DNA of 64,000 nt from a phage (GCA_018175075.1 GCA_018175075.1_4100.1), one strand, 5' to 3'. Shown: positions 5,864 through 51,336, numbered from the stretch's first letter. Notes: generated by a model not told the origin, from the letters alone. Numbers and translations are program-made.

Positions 5864-6055
5864 ATGTTGATTTATCAAAGTGATAATATTCGTGTTATGC
5901 AGCATCCCTACTTACAAATCTTTGATGTGCAGCAGTATATGGAAGGTGATGACCCAAGAACCTATGGTCGTAAGTATGATTACTTCACTGTAAAGCAGTG
6001 TAATAATATTAACGAAGTACGACAATTAGTTCAAGAACTTCAAAACAAAGGTTGA
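5864..6055 (+). CDS. hypothetical protein
   Basis: track ORF starts at GTG 5810 inside upstream gene; ATG 5864 has AAGGA RBS. Confidence 0.5.
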   Translation: MLIYQSDNIRVMQHPYLQIFDVQQYMEGDDPRTYGRKYDYFTVKQCNNINEVRQLVQELQNKG

Positions 6056-6076
6056 CTTCGGTCAGCCTTTTTTGTT
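6047..6076 (+). terminator. intrinsic terminator, UUCG tetraloop, with embedded TTGACT
   Basis: GGTTGAC-TTCG-GTCAGCC followed by T6. Confidence 0.7.
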
Positions 6077-8784: not shown

Positions 8785-8899
8785 TTTAACTTTGGGACAA
8801 CCATTCTTATTATGATATAATGTTTTATGTCATTCGATATAAATGACAACGGAACTATAAATATTATAGTAAAATTTATCTCTTATAGGAGTTATAAAA

Positions 8900-9283
8900 A
8901 TGGTTGATAAATGGAATAAGAAAGATCCATCACATGATGTTGATATTTCTGGTCTAGACAATGCACATAAGCACAAGTATCTAGATTCACTAGGTCTTCT
9001 AAAACCAGACCAAAGTCTTGCACATGATCGTCCATCCCGTGAAAAAGCATTTAGCCTAGAATCACTAGGTCATGAGCTTAATCGTGTGTTTGAGGATCAC
9101 CCAATCTATGTACGTGATATTATCGAGAAACTTAAAGTAACTCCTAAAGAGCACTTTAAAGCAACTGTACACTCTGCATTCCGTGCATTACATGAATCTC
9201 TAAAGAAAACTCACAATCTTCGTAAAATTCATGATGAAATCGTGAATGCAATCGAAAGTGAAAAACATAAGTTCAAGAAGTAA
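8900..9283 (+). CDS. hypothetical protein (shares Y.DSLGLL motif with 10627 gene)
   Basis: 127 aa, AGGAG RBS. Confidence 0.6.
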   Translation: MVDKWNKKDPSHDVDISGLDNAHKHKYLDSLGLLKPDQSLAHDRPSREKAFSLESLGHELNRVFEDHPIYVRDIIEKLKVTPKEHFKATVHSAFRALHESLKKTHNLRKIHDEIVNAIESEKHKFKK

Positions 9284-9286
9284 TAA

Positions 9287-9319
9287 AAGGGTTGACTAAG
9301 GTCAGCCCTTTGTTGTATC
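9287..9319 (+). terminator. intrinsic terminator
   Basis: GGGTTGACTAAGGTCAGCCC followed by T-run. Confidence 0.65.
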
Positions 9320-9350
9320 ATAACTTCTCAATATAACTGAGGTATCATAT

Positions 9351-9464
9351 ATGCAAGGTTTGAAATTTGTAGTTGCTGCACTCATCGCTGCTGTTGTAGT
9401 GGGTACAGTATGTTATTCAATTGACACCTATATCAATACACCTAGTGTTGAACAAACCAAATAA
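9351..9464 (+). CDS. small membrane peptide
   Basis: 37-aa ORF below track cutoff; GAGG RBS; one TM segment. Confidence 0.3.
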   Translation: MQGLKFVVAALIAAVVVGTVCYSIDTYINTPSVEQTK

Positions 9465-9472
9465 GGGATATC

Positions 9473-9736
9473 ATGGCTGAAACATTATCACTATATGCGT
9501 TAGTACTGTTATTTGTCGGATTTCTTCCCGCACTCATTACAGCCATTCGTGTTGTTAAACATGAAGCTGCATTGATTGTATGTAGTATTGGGTCGAACAT
9601 TCTATTGTATTTCTTTTTGACAAATACTATTGTACTGTTTGCTTTCTTTATCATGATTCTGTGGGTACTTGTAATTCTCGGATTCTTCATTTGGTCATTG
9701 GTTGATCCTAAGAAAAAATCAGGAGAAGTGAAATGA
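9473..9736 (+). CDS. membrane protein
   Basis: 87 aa, AAGGGA RBS, two or three TM segments. Confidence 0.55.
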   Translation: MAETLSLYALVLLFVGFLPALITAIRVVKHEAALIVCSIGSNILLYFFLTNTIVLFAFFIMILWVLVILGFFIWSLVDPKKKSGEVK

Positions 9737-10029
9737 AATTAATTATAGCAATGATAATGTGTTTGGCTTTCCCTGTACTGGCTACTCCTAATCTGGACTG
9801 CACACTGTTGCGTTCAGATGGTGACACACTTGAAATCAACACATATGAACTCTTTGGTCCAAGTGTAGTGGAGAATGAAACCACCTACAATTTCAAAGCT
9901 ATTGACTTTGAAGGTAATGTTCCAGTACTAACTACAATGACTATTGACAAAACTACTTTACTCGGACGAATCACCACACAACGCGGAGAAAGTAAAACAT
10001 TCACAGCGAAAGCTGACTGTAACTACTAA
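9733..10029 (+). CDS. secreted protein (signal peptide)
   Basis: signal MKLIIAMIMCLAFPVLATP. Confidence 0.55.
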   Translation: MKLIIAMIMCLAFPVLATPNLDCTLLRSDGDTLEINTYELFGPSVVENETTYNFKAIDFEGNVPVLTTMTIDKTTLLGRITTQRGESKTFTAKADCNY

Positions 10030-10049
10030 TGGTATAGTACAGTGAAAAT

Positions 10050-10073
10050 AGGGTTGACTTCGGTCAACCTTTA
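10050..10073 (+). terminator. intrinsic terminator (UUCG loop)
   Basis: GGGTTGAC-TTCG-GTCAACCTTT. Confidence 0.55.
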
Positions 10074-10079
10074 TATATA

Positions 10080-10622
10080 ATGGAAGAAATAAACATGGAA
10101 CGTTGGAAATTAATTCCTGATTATGACTATTCAATTTCTGATCATGGAAGAGTAAGAAACGAACAAACTGGATATATAAGTTGTGGATTTAAAAATAAAG
10201 ATGGGTATGTGAAGGTCGATTTGTATCGCAATTCTGTGAAAAATAGAAAGGCGATTCATCGACTAGTAGCTGAAGCATTTTTACCACCACCCACACAGAA
10301 ACAGTTACAGTGGGCGAGTAGAACAAAGAAAAAAGTTGTTCACATAAACCATAAAGATTGTAATAGAAGTAACAATCACTATTTGAATTTGGAATGGAAC
10401 ACAGCATCTGAAAACGTACTATATTCTTATTCACATGGTAACGCAACAACTAATCGTGGTGCTGCTGTGTTGACATGGGAAATTGTAAGAGAAATAAGAA
10501 AAGATTATAATGATAATTATAATGATGTGATAGAATATGCACGAGAAAATTGTAATAAATACCGTGTATGTAAAAAAACAATACGTCGTATTTTATACAA
10601 TCAAACATGGATAGAGGATTAA
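10080..10622 (+). CDS. HNH homing endonuclease (NUMOD4 + HNH_3 type)
   Basis: N-terminal WKLIPDYDYSISDHGRVRN, AIHRLVAEAF, and HINHKDCNRSNNHYLNLEW HNH motif. Confidence 0.85.
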   Translation: MEEINMERWKLIPDYDYSISDHGRVRNEQTGYISCGFKNKDGYVKVDLYRNSVKNRKAIHRLVAEAFLPPPTQKQLQWASRTKKKVVHINHKDCNRSNNHYLNLEWNTASENVLYSYSHGNATTNRGAAVLTWEIVREIRKDYNDNYNDVIEYARENCNKYRVCKKTIRRILYNQTWIED

Positions 10623-10626
10623 AAAT

Positions 10627-11886
10627 ATGCCACAAGATAATGGGGATATGAAACATCGTAATGGTGGACTAGTACAACACTCGGATAAATGGGCCGACCG
10701 AAATCGTCGCAAAAATAGTTATCAAGCAGGACAAGGTTCACGTGGTTCCAGAAACCAAGGAACGGGACTTGCTGGTAAGGCAAACGCAGAAGCAGGTGAA
10801 GTTAAGAGTACTGAGAACATGACTGAGCTAGAAAAGCTACGTTATGTTAATTCATTGGGACTTCTTAATGCTACACAAAAACAACGTCTAGCTGATATGG
10901 AACGTGAAGAAAAAGAAAAGTCTGCTCCTGCGAAAGAAGAACCAAAACAAGAAGCACCAAAGGCGGTTAACCCTGTCAAAGAACTGTCTGATAAGTTAGG
11001 TAAGATTTTTGCTAATAAACCACAACTTATCCAAGGTATTGTGAAAGAATTGCAATCTGTACCTAAAGAAGAATTAAAAGTCAAAGCACAAGCTGTACTT
11101 GATGCAATGAGTGGAAATACCAGTACTGAACCAACTGAAGTATTCAGTACTATAATGCGTGCACTTGAAGGTACGCAACAAGGTGATGTGCCTGCACAAG
11201 AGGAAGTAAGTCTTGAAAGCGTACTTAAAACATTTGATAGTATTGGTAAAGAAGACCGTGCTAATGCTCAACAAGTTAAGAATGTACTAGCTAAGTTAGA
11301 AAACCGTCTGGAAGGTAAAGACGATAAGATTAAATTAGTATCTGATGCAGTTAACGATGCACTTAAATCTTATGTACAAGGTGAAAAGAGTCGTTTTGTA
11401 ACTGCAATGGATGCTGCATTCAATACTATGAAAAAGTATGAAGCTGATCATGGTGAGAAGGTTACACGAGATGGTTATCTGATGCGTGATGATGAAGAAG
11501 GTGCAGTAGAACAGAATGATGTTCATTCAGACGAAGAAATTGATGACATGGAAGCTGAACTGTCACAAGACCGCCAAATGACTGAAAAATCCCATAACGA
11601 ACTACAGAAATTAATGCAATGGGTTGCAGATGTTGGTGAAAAAGCTGGTGCTGATAAGAAGAGTATAAACCGAAATCTTAGTTGGATTAAAGATAAAGTT
11701 GGTAACAACGCTCGTAAACTACAAAAAGCGTGGACTGATGTAGTGAATGGTGCTGTTGACATTGATGTTGAATCCGGTGAGGCATATGATTATGCATTGA
11801 CTACACTTGATGACTCTTTCCGTGATTACGAAAATGGAAATGTAACTCCTTGGGAAAAGGATATCATGAGCAAATACGGTAAATGA
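10627..11886 (+). CDS. hypothetical acidic, Lys/Glu-rich protein
   Basis: 419-aa ORF; likely helical/coiled; shares SLGLL motif with 8900 gene. Confidence 0.75.
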   Translation: MPQDNGDMKHRNGGLVQHSDKWADRNRRKNSYQAGQGSRGSRNQGTGLAGKANAEAGEVKSTENMTELEKLRYVNSLGLLNATQKQRLADMEREEKEKSAPAKEEPKQEAPKAVNPVKELSDKLGKIFANKPQLIQGIVKELQSVPKEELKVKAQAVLDAMSGNTSTEPTEVFSTIMRALEGTQQGDVPAQEEVSLESVLKTFDSIGKEDRANAQQVKNVLAKLENRLEGKDDKIKLVSDAVNDALKSYVQGEKSRFVTAMDAAFNTMKKYEADHGEKVTRDGYLMRDDEEGAVEQNDVHSDEEIDDMEAELSQDRQMTEKSHNELQKLMQWVADVGEKAGADKKSINRNLSWIKDKVGNNARKLQKAWTDVVNGAVDIDVESGEAYDYALTTLDDSFRDYENGNVTPWEKDIMSKYGK

Positions 11887-11895
11887 TAAAACAAA

Positions 11896-11924
11896 AGGTT
11901 GACTTCGGTCAGCCTTTTTTTTGT
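11896..11924 (+). terminator. intrinsic terminator (UUCG loop)
   Basis: GGTTGAC-TTCG-GTCAGCC followed by T8. Confidence 0.7.
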
Positions 11925-12979: not shown

Positions 12980-13007
12980 AAGGGTTGACTTCGGTCAGCC
13001 TTTTTTG
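12980..13007 (+). terminator. intrinsic terminator (UUCG loop)
   Basis: GGGTTGAC-TTCG-GTCAGCC followed by T6. Confidence 0.7.
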
Positions 13008-16351: not shown

Positions 16352-16528
16352 ATGAAACTACGTACTCGTAATCGACTGATGGATGCACTGTACCATGAAC
16401 AGCTTTCACTGAATGAAGTGAAGCGACAGTTAATGTACACATATCTGTTACCCGCTCGCATTGCAAAACAACGTGCTAAAGAATTGCTGAAAGAAGCAAT
16501 CGAGTACTGGGAATCTGATTCGTACTAA
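16352..16528 (+). CDS. small hypothetical protein
   Basis: 58-aa ORF below track cutoff; AAGGA RBS. Confidence 0.4.
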   Translation: MKLRTRNRLMDALYHEQLSLNEVKRQLMYTYLLPARIAKQRAKELLKEAIEYWESDSY

Positions 16529-17497: not shown

Positions 17498-17527
17498 GTA
17501 TGTACACCAACTAATGAGGAATCGGAA

Positions 17528-17887
17528 ATGGCATCTTTATCTGAAATCACTGAACTGAATCCACTGGTAATTAGTACTGTTCAACGCACCAAGACGTTTT
17601 ACTTCCGTCCTGCTGATGGATGGAAACGTGGAATGAATGGTGACTATCGAGTACTGGAAGATTCGCTCATCGAGCGTATCAACTCTGAACTACAGAAGTA
17701 TGAAGGTGTTAAAGTTGTCCGTTCAACTTCTCGTTATTTTGAGTACTACATTGAGTCTTCAACTGTAAATGAAAACTCATCATTCTCGGTGGATAACACT
17801 GATATTCTTCGCAATGCAGTTGGTTTGCTATGCAACATTGCAGAAGAAATGGGATTAACTATCACCACAATGAGTGAGTTAGAATAG
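17528..17887 (+). CDS. hypothetical protein
   Basis: 119 aa, GAGGA RBS. Confidence 0.6.
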   Translation: MASLSEITELNPLVISTVQRTKTFYFRPADGWKRGMNGDYRVLEDSLIERINSELQKYEGVKVVRSTSRYFEYYIESSTVNENSSFSVDNTDILRNAVGLLCNIAEEMGLTITTMSELE

Positions 17888-17895
17888 AATAAAAA

Positions 17896-17922
17896 AAGGG
17901 TTGACTTAGGTCGGCCCTTTTG
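17896..17922 (+). terminator. intrinsic terminator
   Basis: GGGTTGACTTAGGTCGGCCC followed by T-run. Confidence 0.65.
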
Positions 17923-17957
17923 CTATTATATCTATATCGAAACGAAGGAGACAAACC

Positions 17958-18731
17958 ATGACCCGTCAAGAGAAAGCAATCCAAATCGAAAAAAACTTCA
18001 ATAGCATGATGGCTGCACTGGAATGCCTTCTTGATACACAAGCTAACTCTATCAACTCTCTGATCGTATCAGGTAAAGGTGGTGTTGGTAAAACTTATAA
18101 CGTTGACCAACGGTTGCAGAAAGCTGATGATAACTTTGAAATCGACTACAAGAAAATCAGTGGTAAAGTAACTACTTTGGGTCTGTACGAAGCACTGTAT
18201 CGTTCACGTCATGCCGCATCAGTACTGTTACTTGATGACGTTGATATCTTCTCTGACGAGACTAACATTGATTTGCTTAAAGCTGTGTTGGATACGTCAG
18301 AGAAGCGTGTAGTTTCTTACGCGACTTCTGCTAAGTACCTGGAACAGCAGGGTATCCCTAAGCAGTTTGAATTCCGTGGTAAAGTAATCTTTCTGACTAA
18401 CAAAAACCTGTCACAGATTGCTAAAGGTAAAAGCAGCTTAGCACCACACATCGATGCACTGATCACTCGTAGTATCTTTGTTGACCTGCAACTGTTCACC
18501 AACGAAGAAGTGATGATTCACATTGAGAACATCATGAACAAAACTAACATCCTTGAAAACAATGGTGTTAACAAAAATGGTTGTAAAGCAATCCTGAATT
18601 GGATGCTGAACAACGAAGAACGTTTGCGTAGTCCATCACTGCGTATGCCAGTACTGATCGCTGGTTTGTATAATAAATTCCCATACGATTGGGAATCAAT
18701 GGCAGAGAATATGTTCCTTGAGAAAATTTAA
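17958..18731 (+). CDS. AAA+/P-loop ATPase
   Basis: Walker A GKGGVGKT, Walker B VLLLDDVD, sensor-1-like IFLTNKN; AAGGAG RBS. Confidence 0.65.
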   Translation: MTRQEKAIQIEKNFNSMMAALECLLDTQANSINSLIVSGKGGVGKTYNVDQRLQKADDNFEIDYKKISGKVTTLGLYEALYRSRHAASVLLLDDVDIFSDETNIDLLKAVLDTSEKRVVSYATSAKYLEQQGIPKQFEFRGKVIFLTNKNLSQIAKGKSSLAPHIDALITRSIFVDLQLFTNEEVMIHIENIMNKTNILENNGVNKNGCKAILNWMLNNEERLRSPSLRMPVLIAGLYNKFPYDWESMAENMFLEKI

Positions 18732-30037: not shown

Positions 30038-31228
30038 TTACAATTGTCTAGGTGTATCCAGTACATATCTATTTGTACGAGGACCACCATCATCATGCGT
30101 TCCGGTTGAATATATATTTTTCATATCAGCAGTTAGGAAAGTACGATACGAACCGCGATATATTTTAATTTTATCATACATAGAATATGTTATTCCTGAC
30201 GGCAATGGACATGCAGTAAATTTACCAATGGTAACATTAGAACCAACACCTAATGTACCAGCATAACCACTCGCATTTAAACCAGTTGCATATACACCTG
30301 TACTCGTAACTAGTATACTAGATTGTGATGCATATCCAGTATGGATTGAATAATAAGTTCCTGATGGTAATGTAGTACTATTATTCCCTAATACTGCTAG
30401 TGCTGTACTATTCGTAGTGTTATTACCCCATGCCCCATTATTAGCTAATCCACCAACTAGAAACTGACGTGCTCCTGTATTTGGATTCTCCACTAAAGCA
30501 CTGACAGCACCAAATGAACAAACAGTATATTGTAATGTTTTTGTATATGTGGTACTTGGCTTATACAAAGTATATTCATTAAATGGTGTCCATGTGGTAC
30601 TAGTACTTATGCCAGATGTACTACCACCAATATATAAATTATTTTGTGTATCAAAAAACATTGCACAGTAATTTGTTGACTGTATTTGTGCAATATCTAC
30701 ATCTGGTGTTACCGCTTTAACAAATGAACCATCTGATATTTGATAAGTAGTTCCTGTACCATCTGCGAATTGTCTAGCACTATTCCACCCTGTACTCCAT
30801 ATTGTATTATTATCCATTAAGAAAGTAAACCACGTAGTACCTGCATACATCTGTTTAATTGAAGTACTTGAACTTTGTGTGTACAAATTTTCAATATATT
30901 GGTTATAACTTAAAAATGATGTAGTACTAGTTTCTAAACCAATATGACTACCATATCCACAATAAAAATAATTTAAGTCATTATCTTGTACTAACAAAGT
31001 TCCTTGTGTCATCCAGCAATCTTTGACATTTTCTCTAATTAATGTCCACGACCTTACTGCATTATTATTTCCTCTACCAAACTTCCCATAACTATTACTG
31101 CCTCGTGCGTATAGTTGACCGTCGGTATAAAGTACAACAACCTCAGTATCAGTTGGTATTATTTTCTTAATTTGTAGTGGTACAGGCACAATATTCCCAT
31201 AATTCATCATTCTTGCAAAAGGTAACAT
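30038..31228 (-). CDS. RCC1-like beta-propeller repeat protein G8
   Basis: 396 aa, MLPFARMMNYGNIVP. Confidence 0.75.
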   Translation of the reverse strand: MLPFARMMNYGNIVPVPLQIKKIIPTDTEVVVLYTDGQLYARGSNSYGKFGRGNNNAVRSWTLIRENVKDCWMTQGTLLVQDNDLNYFYCGYGSHIGLETSTTSFLSYNQYIENLYTQSSSTSIKQMYAGTTWFTFLMDNNTIWSTGWNSARQFADGTGTTYQISDGSFVKAVTPDVDIAQIQSTNYCAMFFDTQNNLYIGGSTSGISTSTTWTPFNEYTLYKPSTTYTKTLQYTVCSFGAVSALVENPNTGARQFLVGGLANNGAWGNNTTNSTALAVLGNNSTTLPSGTYYSIHTGYASQSSILVTSTGVYATGLNASGYAGTLGVGSNVTIGKFTACPLPSGITYSMYDKIKIYRGSYRTFLTADMKNIYSTGTHDDGGPRTNRYVLDTPRQL

Positions 31229-31299
31229 AATTCCCCTCCTTATTCATTATACTATATTTAATACAAATAAGAAAGCCAGTATCAAGTACTGGCCTATAT
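31229..31299 (-). promoter_or_regulatory. array cassette: terminator hairpin, -10, SD
   Basis: hairpin 31275-31293. Confidence 0.5.
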
Positions 31300-32469
31300 T
31301 TAAACTGGCGAATCTAATATAAATTCTAAACTACTAATGCCACCATATGTGACATCTGTTCCCGTGCTATATACAAAATTACCATCAGTTATATAAGTTC
31401 GGTTATAACTACCTGCCATCTGTGACTTACTATAATCAAACCCATCAGGTACGATTGCTTTGGTATATACTAATGCATTAGTAGATGTACCAATACCTAA
31501 CATACCAGCTTGTGTAGATTGATTGTAGCCGCAACAATATATACCATCTGTTGTAGCAATAACTTGGTTATAATATGAAGTATTGTTAGCAATGCTTACT
31601 ACATCACCAGGTGGCATTAGTGATGCTGTTTGTACCTCAAATGCTCTATAATCTTTGAGAGAACCATCTTTCCCATCTGCTTGTGCACCAAATATTCTTG
31701 AACCACCATTTGCGATGATAGTTTTACCAGTGGGATCAGTGCCTATTGCCATTGCCATTGAAGTACCATTATTCACATAGTACTTTATATTAATTGTATT
31801 ACTTAAGCTGGTAGGAGCACCATAATATATATTATATAACTTACTTCCTGAACTTGTAACTGCATTGACTCTTCCTGTATAAAATAACCATCCTTGGTTT
31901 GTAACATAACCGTGCATTAAATTACTTGCAAACAATTTAACAGGTAATTGATTTGCTGCGGTAGGAACAGTACTTTTGACGAATCTACCAGAAACATGGT
32001 TAATTGTTGTCCCATCACCCAACTGACCATCCGACCCTACTCCAGTACTCCATATTGTTTGGTCTGATAGTAACACACTTGTAGTCTGATAACTAACGGC
32101 TATATCTAATATTGGTAATGTTAATGTATTGAATATAGGCATAGCAGATGTCCATATTGATACTCCTGACCCTTTCATACCAACAGTTGTTGAACTTCCA
32201 CTGTACCATATTTCATTATTGCTTTTCTTAACAACTATCGACGTGGCACCCATCCAAAAATCTTCAACACCAGAAGTACTAAAAGTCCATGTAGTAACAG
32301 TATTTTTGTGACCTAAACCCAAAATACCATATGCATTATCACCACGCACATATAAATCACCACTGTTTGTTAAAACAGCAACATTATAGTTGTTAGCAAG
32401 TATTTTTTTAATATTTGGTTTATCAGGTGCAATATTCCCGTACTTAAACATCCTCGCAAAAGGTAACAT
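31300..32469 (-). CDS. RCC1-like beta-propeller repeat protein G9
   Basis: 389 aa, MLPFARMFKYGNIAPD; motifs GQLGDG, GMLGIG. Confidence 0.75.
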   Translation of the reverse strand: MLPFARMFKYGNIAPDKPNIKKILANNYNVAVLTNSGDLYVRGDNAYGILGLGHKNTVTTWTFSTSGVEDFWMGATSIVVKKSNNEIWYSGSSTTVGMKGSGVSIWTSAMPIFNTLTLPILDIAVSYQTTSVLLSDQTIWSTGVGSDGQLGDGTTINHVSGRFVKSTVPTAANQLPVKLFASNLMHGYVTNQGWLFYTGRVNAVTSSGSKLYNIYYGAPTSLSNTINIKYYVNNGTSMAMAIGTDPTGKTIIANGGSRIFGAQADGKDGSLKDYRAFEVQTASLMPPGDVVSIANNTSYYNQVIATTDGIYCCGYNQSTQAGMLGIGTSTNALVYTKAIVPDGFDYSKSQMAGSYNRTYITDGNFVYSTGTDVTYGGISSLEFILDSPV

Positions 32470-32538
32470 ATTTCCTCCTTATTCATTATACTATATTTAA
32501 TACAAATAAGAATGCCAGTATCAAGTACTGGCATTATG
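32470..32538 (-). promoter_or_regulatory. array cassette: terminator hairpin, -10, SD
   Basis: hairpin 32514-32532. Confidence 0.5.
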
Positions 32539-33648
32539 TTATTTTGGTAAATCAATTTTAGTAAAGACTGCAACATCTGCACTTGCACCTGGAATGGCGT
32601 AATACGATCCAGTACTATATACATTCCCGTCTTTGGTTAATAATGATGTTAATCCGTCACTAAAAGCAACATCACTAATCTCACTAACTTCTACAGGTAA
32701 TTGTAAATTAGCAGCACTATAGATAGCACCCGTTTGAGAATTGTTTAATCCCAAACCACGGTTTCCCCCAATACCTTTCTGATATGCACTAGTTAATATA
32801 ATTTGCGTAGCCGTGCTTGTTGCCTCTGAATTTGTCATAAACAAAGGTGAATTATTAGGTAAAGTACTTACAGGAACTGCTTTGAATGTAGTTGAATCTG
32901 AACTAAGAAAGTTTGGAGTTGTACCACATGTGAAATATGATGTACCATTATAGTAATTGAGTGTATGTCCACCAATAGCTGCATCTATTACACCAGAACT
33001 ACGCAGTCCCCAAATGTTAACTTGTGTTCTGTTCCCTGTGCCATGTAATCCACGGTCATTCCACCCTGAACTATATAACTTATTATCTATGCTAATATAC
33101 ATACTATCATTAGGAGTAGACATAACTTTACGCACATTAGAAGCACATAGTGTTAATGTATATATTGATGAAGAACCAATCCCCAATACACCACGGTATC
33201 CATTAGCCCCAGCACCATAGAGTACTGAACTTGAACTTAGTACAAATATTACACCACTATTGCATACAATATTAGCAATTTGATTCACTGGTATTGTATT
33301 TGTAAACCACTCGGTTCTATCAACTAATGTAGTACTGTAAGAAGTAGTTGTAGAAGATGTGAACCAGTACGTTTGACCTGATGTCCATATCGTATTATCA
33401 TTTTTAATAATAACAAGTGTTCGTCCTCCAGTGAAAAAATTAGAAACATCTGCACTTACTAATATCCATGAAGATACCGTGTTGGTATTACCATTTCCAG
33501 ATTCACCACCTTGATTTCTGCCTATGTAATACAATTCATGTGAATCAGTCAATACGAATTGACCTTGAGTAGAAGCACCAACTTTAATTATATTTTTAGG
33601 ACCAGAGGTAATATTCCCATAATCAAATAGTCTTACAAAAGGTAACAT
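32539..33648 (-). CDS. RCC1-like beta-propeller repeat protein G10
   Basis: MLPFVRLFDYGNI; RBS only, no cassette (co-transcribed with G11). Confidence 0.7.
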   Translation of the reverse strand: MLPFVRLFDYGNITSGPKNIIKVGASTQGQFVLTDSHELYYIGRNQGGESGNGNTNTVSSWILVSADVSNFFTGGRTLVIIKNDNTIWTSGQTYWFTSSTTTSYSTTLVDRTEWFTNTIPVNQIANIVCNSGVIFVLSSSSVLYGAGANGYRGVLGIGSSSIYTLTLCASNVRKVMSTPNDSMYISIDNKLYSSGWNDRGLHGTGNRTQVNIWGLRSSGVIDAAIGGHTLNYYNGTSYFTCGTTPNFLSSDSTTFKAVPVSTLPNNSPLFMTNSEATSTATQIILTSAYQKGIGGNRGLGLNNSQTGAIYSAANLQLPVEVSEISDVAFSDGLTSLLTKDGNVYSTGSYYAIPGASADVAVFTKIDLPK

Positions 33649-33656
33649 ATTCCCTC

Positions 33657-34859
33657 CTATTGTTGCCATAACTGCGTTGGCATTAATGTTAGTGTAGTAA
33701 TACTATAAGTGCCATCAGGCAATCTACCACCATTACCATTCCAGCCACCACATGCATATAATTTATAATCTTTAGTAATTATTATGGTTCTGCTCCAATC
33801 TTTAGATGCCATAAGAACATTGTCATAACCACCACTTATTGCACTAAGATTAAAAATAGCCCAAGTCTTAACTAATGTATTAGTTCCATTACCTTCTTGA
33901 CCATATGAGTTAGGACCACTACTTCTAACATATGGTGCGTATTGTGCCATAGGTGAACCAATTGATGCATTTCCCATATTACTTGGACAAATAAAATTAC
34001 TGTACTTACTTACATCAACCGTGACCGATGTATTCCTAATTGGTGTTAGCTGATTTACTGATGTAGTCGTACCATTACCAGCTTGTCCAGTATTGTTAGA
34101 CCCACTATAATATACAGGCCCACCAGTAGTAAACCACCAAGTAACATTGTATGTAGTACTAATATGTTCTACATTACTAATCACGAATTTGTTCAAATAT
34201 ACAACAGAACTACCACCACATCCACTTTCACCAAAGTTATCCTTACCACAAAACCATGCATCTTTATTTGATTTAATATAGTGCGTTCCTTGTAATGAAC
34301 ATGCCATATCTATAACTTCACCCATATTAGTCATAACTGTTAGTGTAGGGATTGAATTTTGATTACCCGACCCACATTCACCATTAGTATTTTTTCCACA
34401 CGCAATTACTCTACCATCTGTTAATAATATTCTAGTACTTTCACCTATATATACACTCTTGATCATATTAGCCATTACGCCAATTTTATTAAATGAAGCA
34501 GTAACATCAGTCCATGTTCTCAAATAACCACTAACAGGTGTTGCATCTCCATAATCAGAAAATGCACCCACCGACCCAGTGTAGTATATTTTATTATCCA
34601 AATCAACCATCAATGAACCATGAACACCCAGCCAATAGGCTGCACAGTTACGTGCAAGTACAGTAAATGACGGAACTGCTGCTGAATTCCCAAGACCAAA
34701 TTGAGACATGTTATTACTACCATAACCATATAAAGTATTAGTTGGGCTATGTAGATACATACAGTTTGTATAATGTTGTTGTAAAACATCTGAGAACTCT
34801 ATAGGTTCTGGCCCTGGTGCAATATTACCGTACTTAACCATTCTAGCAAAAGGTAACAT
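33657..34859 (-). CDS. RCC1-like beta-propeller repeat protein G11
   Basis: 400 aa, MLPFARMVKYGNIAPGPEP. Confidence 0.75.
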   Translation of the reverse strand: MLPFARMVKYGNIAPGPEPIEFSDVLQQHYTNCMYLHSPTNTLYGYGSNNMSQFGLGNSAAVPSFTVLARNCAAYWLGVHGSLMVDLDNKIYYTGSVGAFSDYGDATPVSGYLRTWTDVTASFNKIGVMANMIKSVYIGESTRILLTDGRVIACGKNTNGECGSGNQNSIPTLTVMTNMGEVIDMACSLQGTHYIKSNKDAWFCGKDNFGESGCGGSSVVYLNKFVISNVEHISTTYNVTWWFTTGGPVYYSGSNNTGQAGNGTTTSVNQLTPIRNTSVTVDVSKYSNFICPSNMGNASIGSPMAQYAPYVRSSGPNSYGQEGNGTNTLVKTWAIFNLSAISGGYDNVLMASKDWSRTIIITKDYKLYACGGWNGNGGRLPDGTYSITTLTLMPTQLWQQ

Positions 34860-34931
34860 ATTTCCCTCCTTTATTCATTATATTATATTTAATCAAAAAT
34901 AAAAGCCAGTACTTGAGTACTGGCATATCAA
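34860..34931 (-). promoter_or_regulatory. array cassette: terminator hairpin, -10, SD
   Basis: hairpin 34905-34924. Confidence 0.5.
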
Positions 34932-36098
34932 TTACGAAAAACGTGGATCATCAAGAACAAACACGGTACTACTTGGACCACCTTGTGTGGTGACAGCACT
35001 AGTACTGTAAAGAAAGTTACCATCTGTCATATAAGTTCTACGATTCGTACAAATAACTCTTACTTTATTCATATCGATATCAGGATTAGGTAATGGACAT
35101 GAAGTATACACTGATACATCAGTACTTGTTCCTATTCCCAGCGTACCTTCATTTGTGGTTGAACCGCTATTCAACCCACTAGCATATATACCACTGCTTG
35201 TAATAACAAAAGTGGCGTAGAATGGAGAACCTTCACCTATATTTAATTTAGTTCCAGGTGGTTGTCTTGCCGCAGCAACCGCACCATATGCTTTCCCACC
35301 AGATGTGGCAAGATTACCAAGAGCACCATACTGTTGTTGTCCACCATTATACACTGTGTTAGTGCCATCACTGTTAGTGTGGATACCAATAGAATTATAG
35401 TTACTGTTGCTATATACTAAAGCGGCATTAGAAGTAACTGTATTTCGTGTATATACTTTATATTGTTGGGTAAAATTACCACTAGTGGACGTACCCTGTA
35501 CAGTTCCAGTGTAGTATATATATCCGTCTGTACCAATGAATGAGTGCATAACACTACCTGCAAAAATTTTTTCTGGAGTAACACCTGACGGTATTGTTGA
35601 TTGTACAAATCTACCCACTACATTTGTTGTTGTATTATTTCCCAATTGACCGGAGTCACCATAACCACTTGACCATATGGTATTGTTCTCAAGAAGAACA
35701 CTAATTGATAATCTTGATAAAGCTATTTCTTTAACATCACTTTCTAATGTATCAAAAAATGAAGTACAATTTGTCCAAGTGTTCACTACGCTAGAACTAA
35801 CACCAATTTGTTTATTATCACCAGAACTATAATAATTCCCATCATATGTTTGTATAAGTATAACAGAACCACCAACCCATACTTTATCAACTGAACCAAA
35901 CGTTCTTGTCCATGTGGTAACTATATCCCCGCTATTATTACCCAATCCAAAGCAACCACTACTATCTACGCCTCGTACATATAAATCTCCTGAAGTCATC
36001 AGAACTGCACAGAATGATTGTGCACCTTTAACATCTTTAATTGGCTCTGGTTCAGGTGCAACATTTCCATAATCAAACATTCTAACAAAAGGTAACAT
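34932..36098 (-). CDS. RCC1-like beta-propeller repeat protein G12 (first gene of array)
   Basis: MLPFVRMFDYGNVAPEPEP; motif GQLGNN. Confidence 0.75.
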   Translation of the reverse strand: MLPFVRMFDYGNVAPEPEPIKDVKGAQSFCAVLMTSGDLYVRGVDSSGCFGLGNNSGDIVTTWTRTFGSVDKVWVGGSVILIQTYDGNYYSSGDNKQIGVSSSVVNTWTNCTSFFDTLESDVKEIALSRLSISVLLENNTIWSSGYGDSGQLGNNTTTNVVGRFVQSTIPSGVTPEKIFAGSVMHSFIGTDGYIYYTGTVQGTSTSGNFTQQYKVYTRNTVTSNAALVYSNSNYNSIGIHTNSDGTNTVYNGGQQQYGALGNLATSGGKAYGAVAAARQPPGTKLNIGEGSPFYATFVITSSGIYASGLNSGSTTNEGTLGIGTSTDVSVYTSCPLPNPDIDMNKVRVICTNRRTYMTDGNFLYSTSAVTTQGGPSSTVFVLDDPRFS

Positions 36099-36200
36099 AT
36101 TTCCTCCTTTATTCATTATATCATATTTACCCCATAAACAAAACCCTTGACAACCTTCCAGTACTGGTGTACTATAGAAGGAATATAAGGAGAACTACAC
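36099..36200. promoter_or_regulatory. divergent promoter region
   Basis: minus side TATAAT + AAAGGAGG for G12; plus side TTGACA 36147-36152 /17/ TACTAT 36170-36175 ahead of family S. Confidence 0.45.
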
Positions 36201-51310: not shown

Positions 51311-51336
51311 TGGTTGACTTCGGTCAGCCATTTTGC
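51311..51336 (+). terminator. intrinsic terminator (UUCG loop)
   Basis: GGTTGAC-TTCG-GTCAGCC + TTTT. Confidence 0.65.

Follow-up and report, generated by a model that had tools for sequence, protein, structure and literature searches.

A free-standing I-HmuI-type HNH gene that appears to have moved, with two small neighbours, between lineages of jumbo coliphages

We analysed a 64,000-nucleotide stretch of phage DNA (GCA_018175075.1; called the window below, with all positions counted from its first letter), which belongs to a ~350-kb jumbo Escherichia coli phage of the 121Q/PBECO4/phAPEC6 (Asteriusvirus) group. The subject is an open reading frame (ORF) at 10080-10622 that sits between two virion-protein genes, just past a UUCG-loop hairpin. 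A reading made from the window's sequence alone (the sequence-only reading) had called it an HNH homing endonuclease inserted between unrelated genes.

The HNH gene and its predicted product

The ORF is open on the + strand, as claimed, from an ATG at 10080 to the TAA at 10620-10622, and its 180 amino acids (aa) include both peptides cited in the sequence-only reading, WKLIPDYDYSISDHGRVRN and HINHKDCNRSNNHYLNLEW. The claim had to be revised at the start codon, which is most likely the second ATG, at 10095, as all database copies and the homologues at 57-85% identity begin at the equivalent methionine, and the 85%-identical homologue has no in-frame ATG upstream of it. The gene would then occupy 10095..10622 and encode 175 aa; the ATG at 10080 would add five codons. 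Residues are numbered here from 10080, so that H91 is H86 in the 175-aa numbering.

A profile search bore out the proposed architecture, since both Pfam models scored above their gathering cutoffs: NUMOD4 (PF07463) at residues 7-49 (E 4e-7; 30.6 bits, cutoff 23.4) and HNH_3 (PF13392) at residues 58-113 (E 3.6e-7; 30.1 bits, cutoff 24.8). The ORF also matched PHROG 59, ‘HNH endonuclease' (E 5e-37). NUMOD4 marks an N-terminal beta-sheet DNA-binding region (10098..10226, +), with beta strands at residues 9-58 in the structural model described below and an alignment to I-HmuI from residue 2 of the latter onward. HNH_3 marks the beta-beta-alpha-metal catalytic core (10251..10418, +), which also aligns to I-HmuI. 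No second copy of the protein was found in the 64-kb window by tblastn. An HNH protein associated with terminase and cos-site packaging was considered and rejected, as the neighbours are small ORFs and the virion proteins gp037c/gp035c, no terminase gene lies nearby, and the architecture is NUMOD4, HNH_3 and helix-turn-helix.

The catalytic His and Asn residues, whose absence would have argued against a nuclease, are present: across 67 aligned homologues H91, N99 and N103 do not vary, N90 is found in 64, and position 112 is Asn or Gln in all of them (Asn in the window). By sequence, the sole significant match in the PDB was I-HmuI of Bacillus phage SPO1 (1U3E, E 2e-5), in which D74, H75, N87 and N96 pair with N90, H91, N103 and N112. 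The codons, read directly on the + strand, lie at 10347-10352 (N90-H91), 10386-10388 (N103) and 10413-10415 (N112). We take the roles of the I-HmuI residues to be those given in the 2004 structure paper.

An AlphaFold2 model built on the same alignment had a mean predicted local distance difference test (pLDDT) score of 92.4, and comprised an N-terminal beta sheet, a beta-beta-alpha core and three C-terminal helices (residues 133-146, 150-157 and 165-172, all with pLDDT >90). When the model was compared with the PDB by Foldseek, 1u3e_M was again the only significant match (E 7e-8, probability 1.0, 182 aligned columns over the full length). The template modelling (TM) score to 1u3e_M was only 0.54, a value to be expected of an extended protein with several domains. 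The C-terminal helices also matched homeodomain-type helix-turn-helix domains, and we place a putative helix-turn-helix-like DNA-binding domain at 10476..10595 (+). An A7 run in its coding sequence (10572-10578) is frameshifted in some other genomes.

The protein thus shares with I-HmuI the three-part layout of beta-sheet binder, HNH core and C-terminal helix-turn-helix, and the catalytic His/Asn positions of the two align. They are, however, only ~23% identical, Asp74 of I-HmuI is replaced by Asn, and the window protein has an extra insert of ~17 residues (~70-87) before the HNH strand. In addition, the I-HmuI gene resides in a group I intron within a DNA polymerase gene, whereas the window gene is free-standing and intergenic. 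Both I-HmuI and its isoschizomer I-BasI are nicking enzymes, acting on a single strand of a site of ~24 bp (PMC3017599). Judged by family membership, the ORF very probably encodes a free-standing homing endonuclease of the I-HmuI type. From its conserved residues and predicted fold, the protein looks like a working enzyme of that type, with a presumed nuclease activity.

Close copies of the gene are rare among catalogued phages. Among 50,697 phage records, only EC.P1 carries it (100% aa identity); the next match covers 68% of the query at 45% identity, and matches over the full length are ~35% identical. The latter include free-standing HNH proteins of T5-like phages (SelmaRatti, phA11 and others), which are annotated as homing endonucleases but lie in different genomic contexts. 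The nearest jumbo-phage match outside EC.P1 in the collection, from Klebsiella phage KP13-7, is 42% identical. Free-standing HNH homing endonucleases have been annotated in the Rak2-like jumbo phages (CBB_420, along with CBB_528 and CBB_535, for example, and in Rak2 and GAP32), and one of the Rak2-like HNH genes was described as adjoining a virion structural protein gene (PMC5259590). These belong to the same enzyme family and broad phage group, but are annotations that come without comparative evidence of mobility.

We compared the HNH ORF with its 85%-identical homologue (L016). The proportion of synonymous differences (pS) was 0.57 and of nonsynonymous differences (pN) 0.086, giving a dN/dS of 0.084, which indicates that purifying selection acts on the protein. 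These values bear on the possibility that the ORF is a decayed relic, open but catalytically dead. The Asn at the position of I-HmuI D74 could be read in that way, as could a Tyr at position 115, where 57 of the 67 homologues have His, the weak ribosome-binding site ahead of the ATG at 10095, and the existence of frameshifted copies elsewhere. However, Asn90 is the consensus of the subfamily (64/67), the general-base His and both motif Asn residues are intact, and the whole protein is modelled at pLDDT 92 and has a dN/dS of 0.08. Furthermore, the window copy has its full length and matches the commonest allele exactly. We therefore regard a relic as most improbable.

Some copies in other genomes look damaged. 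Variants of the A7 run destroy the last helix in four of them (+2 nucleotides (nt) in L025 and L029, +1 nt in L027 and L033), and an in-frame loss of 12 nt near window position 10506-10530 removes NDNY in L030. The damaged copies could represent the decay phase of the homing-endonuclease life cycle or, alternatively, homopolymer sequencing error.

Locus states, junctions and passenger genes

Comparison with relatives that lack the gene revealed its presence or absence at one fixed locus among close relatives, a near-identical gene in two backgrounds, and flanks of varying extent that appear to have been co-converted with it. We distinguished four states of the locus. In phAPEC6 and 121Q (state A), a 127-aa virion gene is followed by a 37-aa ORF, the hairpin and a second virion gene. 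In fEgEco12 and seven similar isolates (state B), an 87-aa and a 98-aa ORF lie between the 37-aa ORF and the hairpin. In EC.P1, the window and many metagenomic or assembly contigs (state C), the HNH gene is added to the state B arrangement, between the hairpin and the virion gene. In UB (state D), an unrelated 257-aa ‘endonuclease' (PHROG 681) is found at the same place. Of 45 related phage records, 44 are without this HNH gene, the exception being EC.P1.

The UB protein (L004, MH383160, positions 2062-2835) replaces the 37-aa ORF and matches PHROG 681 with E 1e-42; it also has sub-threshold matches to a DUF4379 zinc finger and to MUG113 (GIY-YIG superfamily), and here too the adjoining virion gene has a diverged 5′ end. 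Selfish endonucleases of different kinds may share this locus as a hot spot.

The minimal element can be seen by comparing EC.P1 with fEgEco12, which are near-isogenic there (97-100% identical in most 100-nt bins to either side), the former with and the latter without the HNH gene (HNH+ and HNH-). Their only difference begins just past the hairpin and extends into the virion gene as far as about nt 120. In the empty allele, TTTTCTTTATAC-TATAAATA comes after the hairpin, and then a ribosome-binding site and the start of the gene. The occupied allele lacks this ~70-bp intergenic segment as well as the first ~95 nt of the gene in that form, and has in their place the HNH ORF with a diverged version of the virion gene's beginning; the DNA replaced amounts to ~155 bp.

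The window carries a larger block. It is 99-100% identical to the HNH-less phAPEC6 up to position 9394 and again from ~10800, and between these points phAPEC6 has 201 bp. The segment at 9395..10780 (+; ~1.4 kb) is instead 98-100% identical to genomes of the EC.P1/L011 type, best to L011, whose flanks are only ~70-85% identical to the window. From the identity profile and the junction tables we interpret it as a putative gene-conversion tract, a donor patch in a phAPEC6-like backbone. The 0.54-kb insert of the sequence-only reading is therefore smaller than the block transferred, which would comprise ~1.4 kb with two extra ORFs, a recoded virion-gene 5′ end and the loss of a late-promoter motif. 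Across all copies the HNH DNA is 99.8-100% identical. At least 23 contigs encode one and the same 175-aa protein, each time at this locus, and they represent two backgrounds (the phAPEC6-like one, where the virion protein has 419 aa, and the EC.P1-like one, where it has 497), whose flanks are 79%, 84% and 70% identical.

We located the junctions in ten distinct phAPEC6-like HNH+ genomes, using tables of informative sites. The left junction of the window lies at 9383..9389, inside the 37-aa ORF (9351..9464), and the same class is found in L015, L009, L025 and L027. Two other classes lie at 9375-9380 (L006, L012 and L033) and at 9308-9314 (L030 and L010). The right junction lies in an interval, 10780..10851, that is common to all ten. 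In EC.P1-like genomes the HNH-linked block has two classes of right end, stopping at ~10747 or beyond 10780.

Two small ORFs appear to be passengers of the HNH gene. The first (9473..9736, +) encodes a predicted 87-aa membrane protein with no family match in Pfam or PHROGs, is absent from phAPEC6 and 121Q, and is found in HNH-less phages of the fEgEco12 type. The second (9733..10029, +) encodes a 98-aa protein with a signal-like N-terminal segment and, among isolates, occurs only in eight HNH-less fEgEco12-type phages and EC.P1. Both are thus confined among isolates to the fEgEco12/EC.P1 lineage. All ten of the phAPEC6-like HNH+ genomes have gained the pair. Every phAPEC6-like context that holds them also holds the HNH gene, which argues that they entered the phAPEC6-like lineage together with it. 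An ‘immunity to superinfection' label on a homologue of the 87-aa protein (vB_Ec-M-J, L024 938-1201) was discarded, because the best PHROG match, phrog_1039, has only E 4.9 and there is no Pfam Imm match. Taken together, the sequence comparisons point to a recent movement of the HNH gene between phage lineages, along with its two small neighbours.

The patch is the only clear foreign segment in the first, collinear 21.5 kb of the window, where one further 500-nt bin, at 16501, is marginal (99.0% against 97.8%). Another replaced segment is seen at 17500-18500, which is ~64-87% identical to both phAPEC6 and EC.P1 within a region that is otherwise 99% phAPEC6-like. The idea that the patch is the sole mosaic segment fails beyond 22 kb, where an array of paralogues is also mosaic. 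The array consists of RCC1-repeat-like proteins of ~300-410 aa (~21900-36100 on the - strand, and onward), with patchy identity to phAPEC6 and EC.P1; some of its bins are closer to EC.P1 and some are in neither phage, which suggests frequent exchange or turnover of the paralogues. Gaps relative to phAPEC6 at 22-24.5 and 35-36 kb contained RCC1-like paralogues and no further endonucleases.

The upstream hairpin and the recoded virion gene

Directly 5′ of the insertion junction is the UUCG-loop hairpin (10050..10071, +; GGGTTGACT-TCGG-GTCAACC(T)), which has a 9-bp stem, a folding energy of -12.1 kcal/mol and a z of -2.8. The sequence-only reading had called it a terminator. The hairpin itself is real, but in the HNH+ allele of the window the insertion has shortened the U-tract to UUU, whereas HNH-less alleles carry UUUUCUUUAU, so that any terminator is weakened. 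We dropped the name for this allele, since a terminator scanner gave no + strand call at 10052-10069, the T-tract being too short. The hairpin core, GGTTGACTTCGGTCARCC, is an intergenic repeat, with seven copies in the window, all on the + strand, against none expected by chance (6050-6067, 9290-9307, 10052-10069, 11897-11914, 12983-13000, 17899-17916 and 51312-51329). A -35-like hexamer, TTGACT, lies within the stem of the repeat and is often followed by a -10-like hexamer. Promoter/stem-loop cassettes of this general appearance have been proposed to mediate module shuffling in T4-type phages. At the HNH locus a consensus scan gave a sigma-70-like match of 11/12 positions (TTGACT-16-TATAAT, 10054..10081, +), a pattern match only, in which the -35 is in the hairpin stem and the -10 arises at the insertion junction, overlapping the ATG at 10080.

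These repeats raise the possibility that the HNH gene is a passive passenger, and that the 1.4-kb patch was exchanged by ordinary homologous recombination, possibly helped by the hairpin/promoter repeats (‘PeSL'-like shuffling). The hairpin copy at 9290-9307 adjoins the left-junction class at 9308-9314, the right-junction interval is common to all recipients, and other donor-like patches are found in the same window. On the other hand, the right junction and all but one of the three left-junction classes fall within coding homology, away from hairpins. The patch is centred on an intact endonuclease gene with a dN/dS of 0.08, includes a recoded form of precisely the gene end next to it, and is the sole clear foreign patch in 21.5 kb of 99-100% phAPEC6-like sequence. 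Moreover, the pairing of the HNH gene with the virion gene persists in relatives of down to 57% identity. We thus consider passive exchange unlikely; hairpin-mediated shuffling of modules without help from a nuclease is a live but weaker alternative to homing.

The insertion also affects a second kind of signal. The consensus of the T4 late promoter, TATAAATA, occurs once in the 64-kb window (8856-8863), against 13.6 ± 3.7 copies expected, and this single copy lies 37 nt upstream of the gene for the 127-aa virion protein (8900..9283; PHROG 16530, ‘virion structural protein'), which is homologous to phAPEC6 gp037c. So strong a depletion suggests that TATAAATA serves this phage as a working late promoter. 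In Rak2-like phages, an ATAAATA motif similar to the T4 late promoter was predicted ahead of structural genes (PMC5259590). A second TATAAATA precedes the homologue of the downstream 419-aa gene in the empty alleles and in UB, and is gone from all HNH+ alleles examined.

That downstream gene exists as the sequence-only reading described it (10627..11886, +). It encodes a homologue of phAPEC6 gp035c and matches PHROG 20398, ‘virion structural protein' (E 9e-170); gp035c and gp037c were both found in phAPEC6 virions by mass spectrometry (PMC7247149). The view that the HNH gene has no link to its neighbours did not hold up on this side. Only a 4-nt spacer separates the HNH stop codon from the virion gene, the GAGGA ribosome-binding site of the latter (10614-10618) lies inside the last HNH codons, and the virion gene is the partner of every HNH homologue examined. 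Since the TATAAATA motif is lost and GAGGA is inside the HNH ORF, the virion gene must be co-transcribed with the HNH gene. Homologues of the HNH gene at 85%, 59% and 57% identity are each followed directly by a homologue of this virion gene (N-terminal identity of the virion proteins 87%, 44% and 60%, respectively), and the pairing must therefore be old. The two flanking virion proteins, of 127 and 419 aa, are distant paralogues, as both match PHROG 16530 and they are 22-29% identical over ~110-130 residues. No Pfam match was found for the 87-, 98-, 127- and 419-aa neighbours.

The 5′ end of the virion gene (10627..10725, +), comprising its first ~30-33 codons with a 6-nt indel, is recoded specifically in HNH+ alleles. 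Between HNH+ and HNH- alleles, pS is 0.6 and pN 0.24-0.27 over codons 1-35, against 0.05-0.08 and 0.003-0.005 over codons 36-200. The same contrast is seen between EC.P1 and fEgEco12 (pN 0.24 and pS 0.61 in the recoded stretch, 0.005 and 0.05 further in the gene). The N-terminus of the protein changes from MP(G/S)(Q/N)FTDKNGGNMAGHSDKWSERNRR in HNH- to MPQDNGDMKHRNGGLVQHSDKWADRNRR in HNH+ alleles. The gp035c homologue is the probable target gene of the HNH enzyme, and its recoded end a candidate region of target-site immunity.

The tight coupling to a structural gene could also mean that the enzyme has been co-opted, and is kept not for homing but for a benefit to the phage, as a weapon against competing related phages or as a source of signals for the virion gene. 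Strong purifying selection and the old association with one virion gene are in line with this, as are the loss of TATAAATA from all HNH+ alleles and the placement of the virion ribosome-binding site inside the HNH ORF, which makes co-transcription a requirement. A homing endonuclease of a jumbo phage reportedly takes part in interference competition. The exclusion of related phages in mixed infection, which the sequence-only reading attributed to free-standing HNH genes in general, would here be an extrapolation from other systems. Nevertheless, 44 of the 45 isolate records do well without the gene, and several copies have C-terminal frameshifts or a deletion, as expected of a dispensable selfish gene. 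Cutting the genomes of rivals would, in addition, be a consequence of homing and needs no separate mechanism. Such co-option seems to us very unlikely.

Homing, its precedents and its consequences

The arrangement is probably explained best by intronless homing of the T4 MobE type, initiated by a nick or a break, in which neighbouring genes hitch-hike; we hold this full scenario to be likely on the strength of sequence comparison and analogy. In a mixed infection, the HNH enzyme would nick or cut an HNH-less allele at a target within the ~155 bp that are replaced, that is, between the U-tract of the hairpin, through the late-promoter motif, and about codon 30 of the virion gene. The break would be resected and repaired from the HNH+ genome, so that the HNH gene would be copied in together with its own recoded, presumably uncleavable, virion 5′ end. 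In a recipient of the phAPEC6 type, repair would extend left to about 9310-9390 and drag in the 87- and 98-aa ORFs. The reach to the left of 9395 would be due to a lack of close homology from the 37-aa ORF up to the hairpin, the ORF being too diverged in its 3′ part.

T4 MobE offers a precedent. It is a free-standing, promoterless HNH endonuclease gene between nrdA and nrdB, whose product nicks the 5′ end of the adjacent gene; it relies on transcription from upstream, polymorphisms of the host allele are believed to protect that allele from self-cutting, its flanks are co-converted, and a neighbouring non-mobile element is mobilized in trans (PMC2790892). Each of these traits has a counterpart here in the sequence comparisons, that of the protected allele being a candidate one. 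However, the activity of MobE was mapped in vivo, whereas the window enzyme is known from sequence alone, and we do not claim homology between the two. The passenger of MobE is an intron, whereas here it would be two small ORFs, in a host phage of ~350 kb.

Several points weigh against homing as the explanation, or against parts of it. At the level of the enzyme, the residue at the metal-ligand position D74 of I-HmuI is an Asn, yet an Asn normal for the subfamily, and the C-terminal domain is frameshifted in some copies of other genomes. At the level of the transfer, whose direction and mechanism we infer from natural genomes, the ten phAPEC6-like HNH+ genomes do not differ in their right-junction interval; one founding transfer, with the left side trimmed later by ordinary recombination, would fit the three left classes as well as three separate homing events. 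Donor-like mosaicism is also seen at 32.5-33.5, 37-39, 41.5-44 and 46-47 kb, mostly in the RCC1-repeat paralogue array, and exchange therefore needs no endonuclease. As for target immunity, the homologues at 57-59% identity adjoin a virion N-terminus of the HNH-minus type, so that the HNH gene is not always accompanied by recoding, and the altered 5′ end may simply be divergence of the donor lineage that was brought along with the element.

It is also conceivable that the homing element acts as a vehicle that moves accessory genes, here those for the 87-aa membrane protein and a 98-aa protein of secreted type, between jumbo-phage lineages diverged by 15-30%, and at the same time rewires expression of the virion protein. 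The rewiring would follow from deletion of the TATAAATA late promoter, truncation of the U-tract and the forced co-transcription with the endonuclease. If so, purifying selection and the old, exclusive pairing with the virion gene would reflect partial co-option and not pure selfishness. We regard this extension, which draws on the sequence comparisons, as tentative and rather doubtful.

Within the library that was searched, no paper described this endonuclease or homing in Asteriusvirus. HNH homing endonucleases are well known, as are intronless homing, co-conversion and trans-homing; what is new is this well-documented member. Free-standing homing endonucleases are regarded as a main force behind phage mosaicism and behind the competition of co-infecting phages, and most of the evidence comes from laboratory phages of the T4 and SPO1 types. 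The jumbo coliphages of ~350 kb provide a natural series of an empty site, a site with the passengers only, an occupied site, different conversion tracts and possibly decaying copies, and this series points to a candidate target of ~155 bp and to existing isolates (EC.P1, fEgEco12 and phAPEC6). Without changing any concept of the field, the series suggests that an endonuclease can bring unrelated small genes across the barrier set by divergence and change the regulatory surroundings of a structural gene, which is relevant to reading the differences in gene content among therapeutic jumbo phages.

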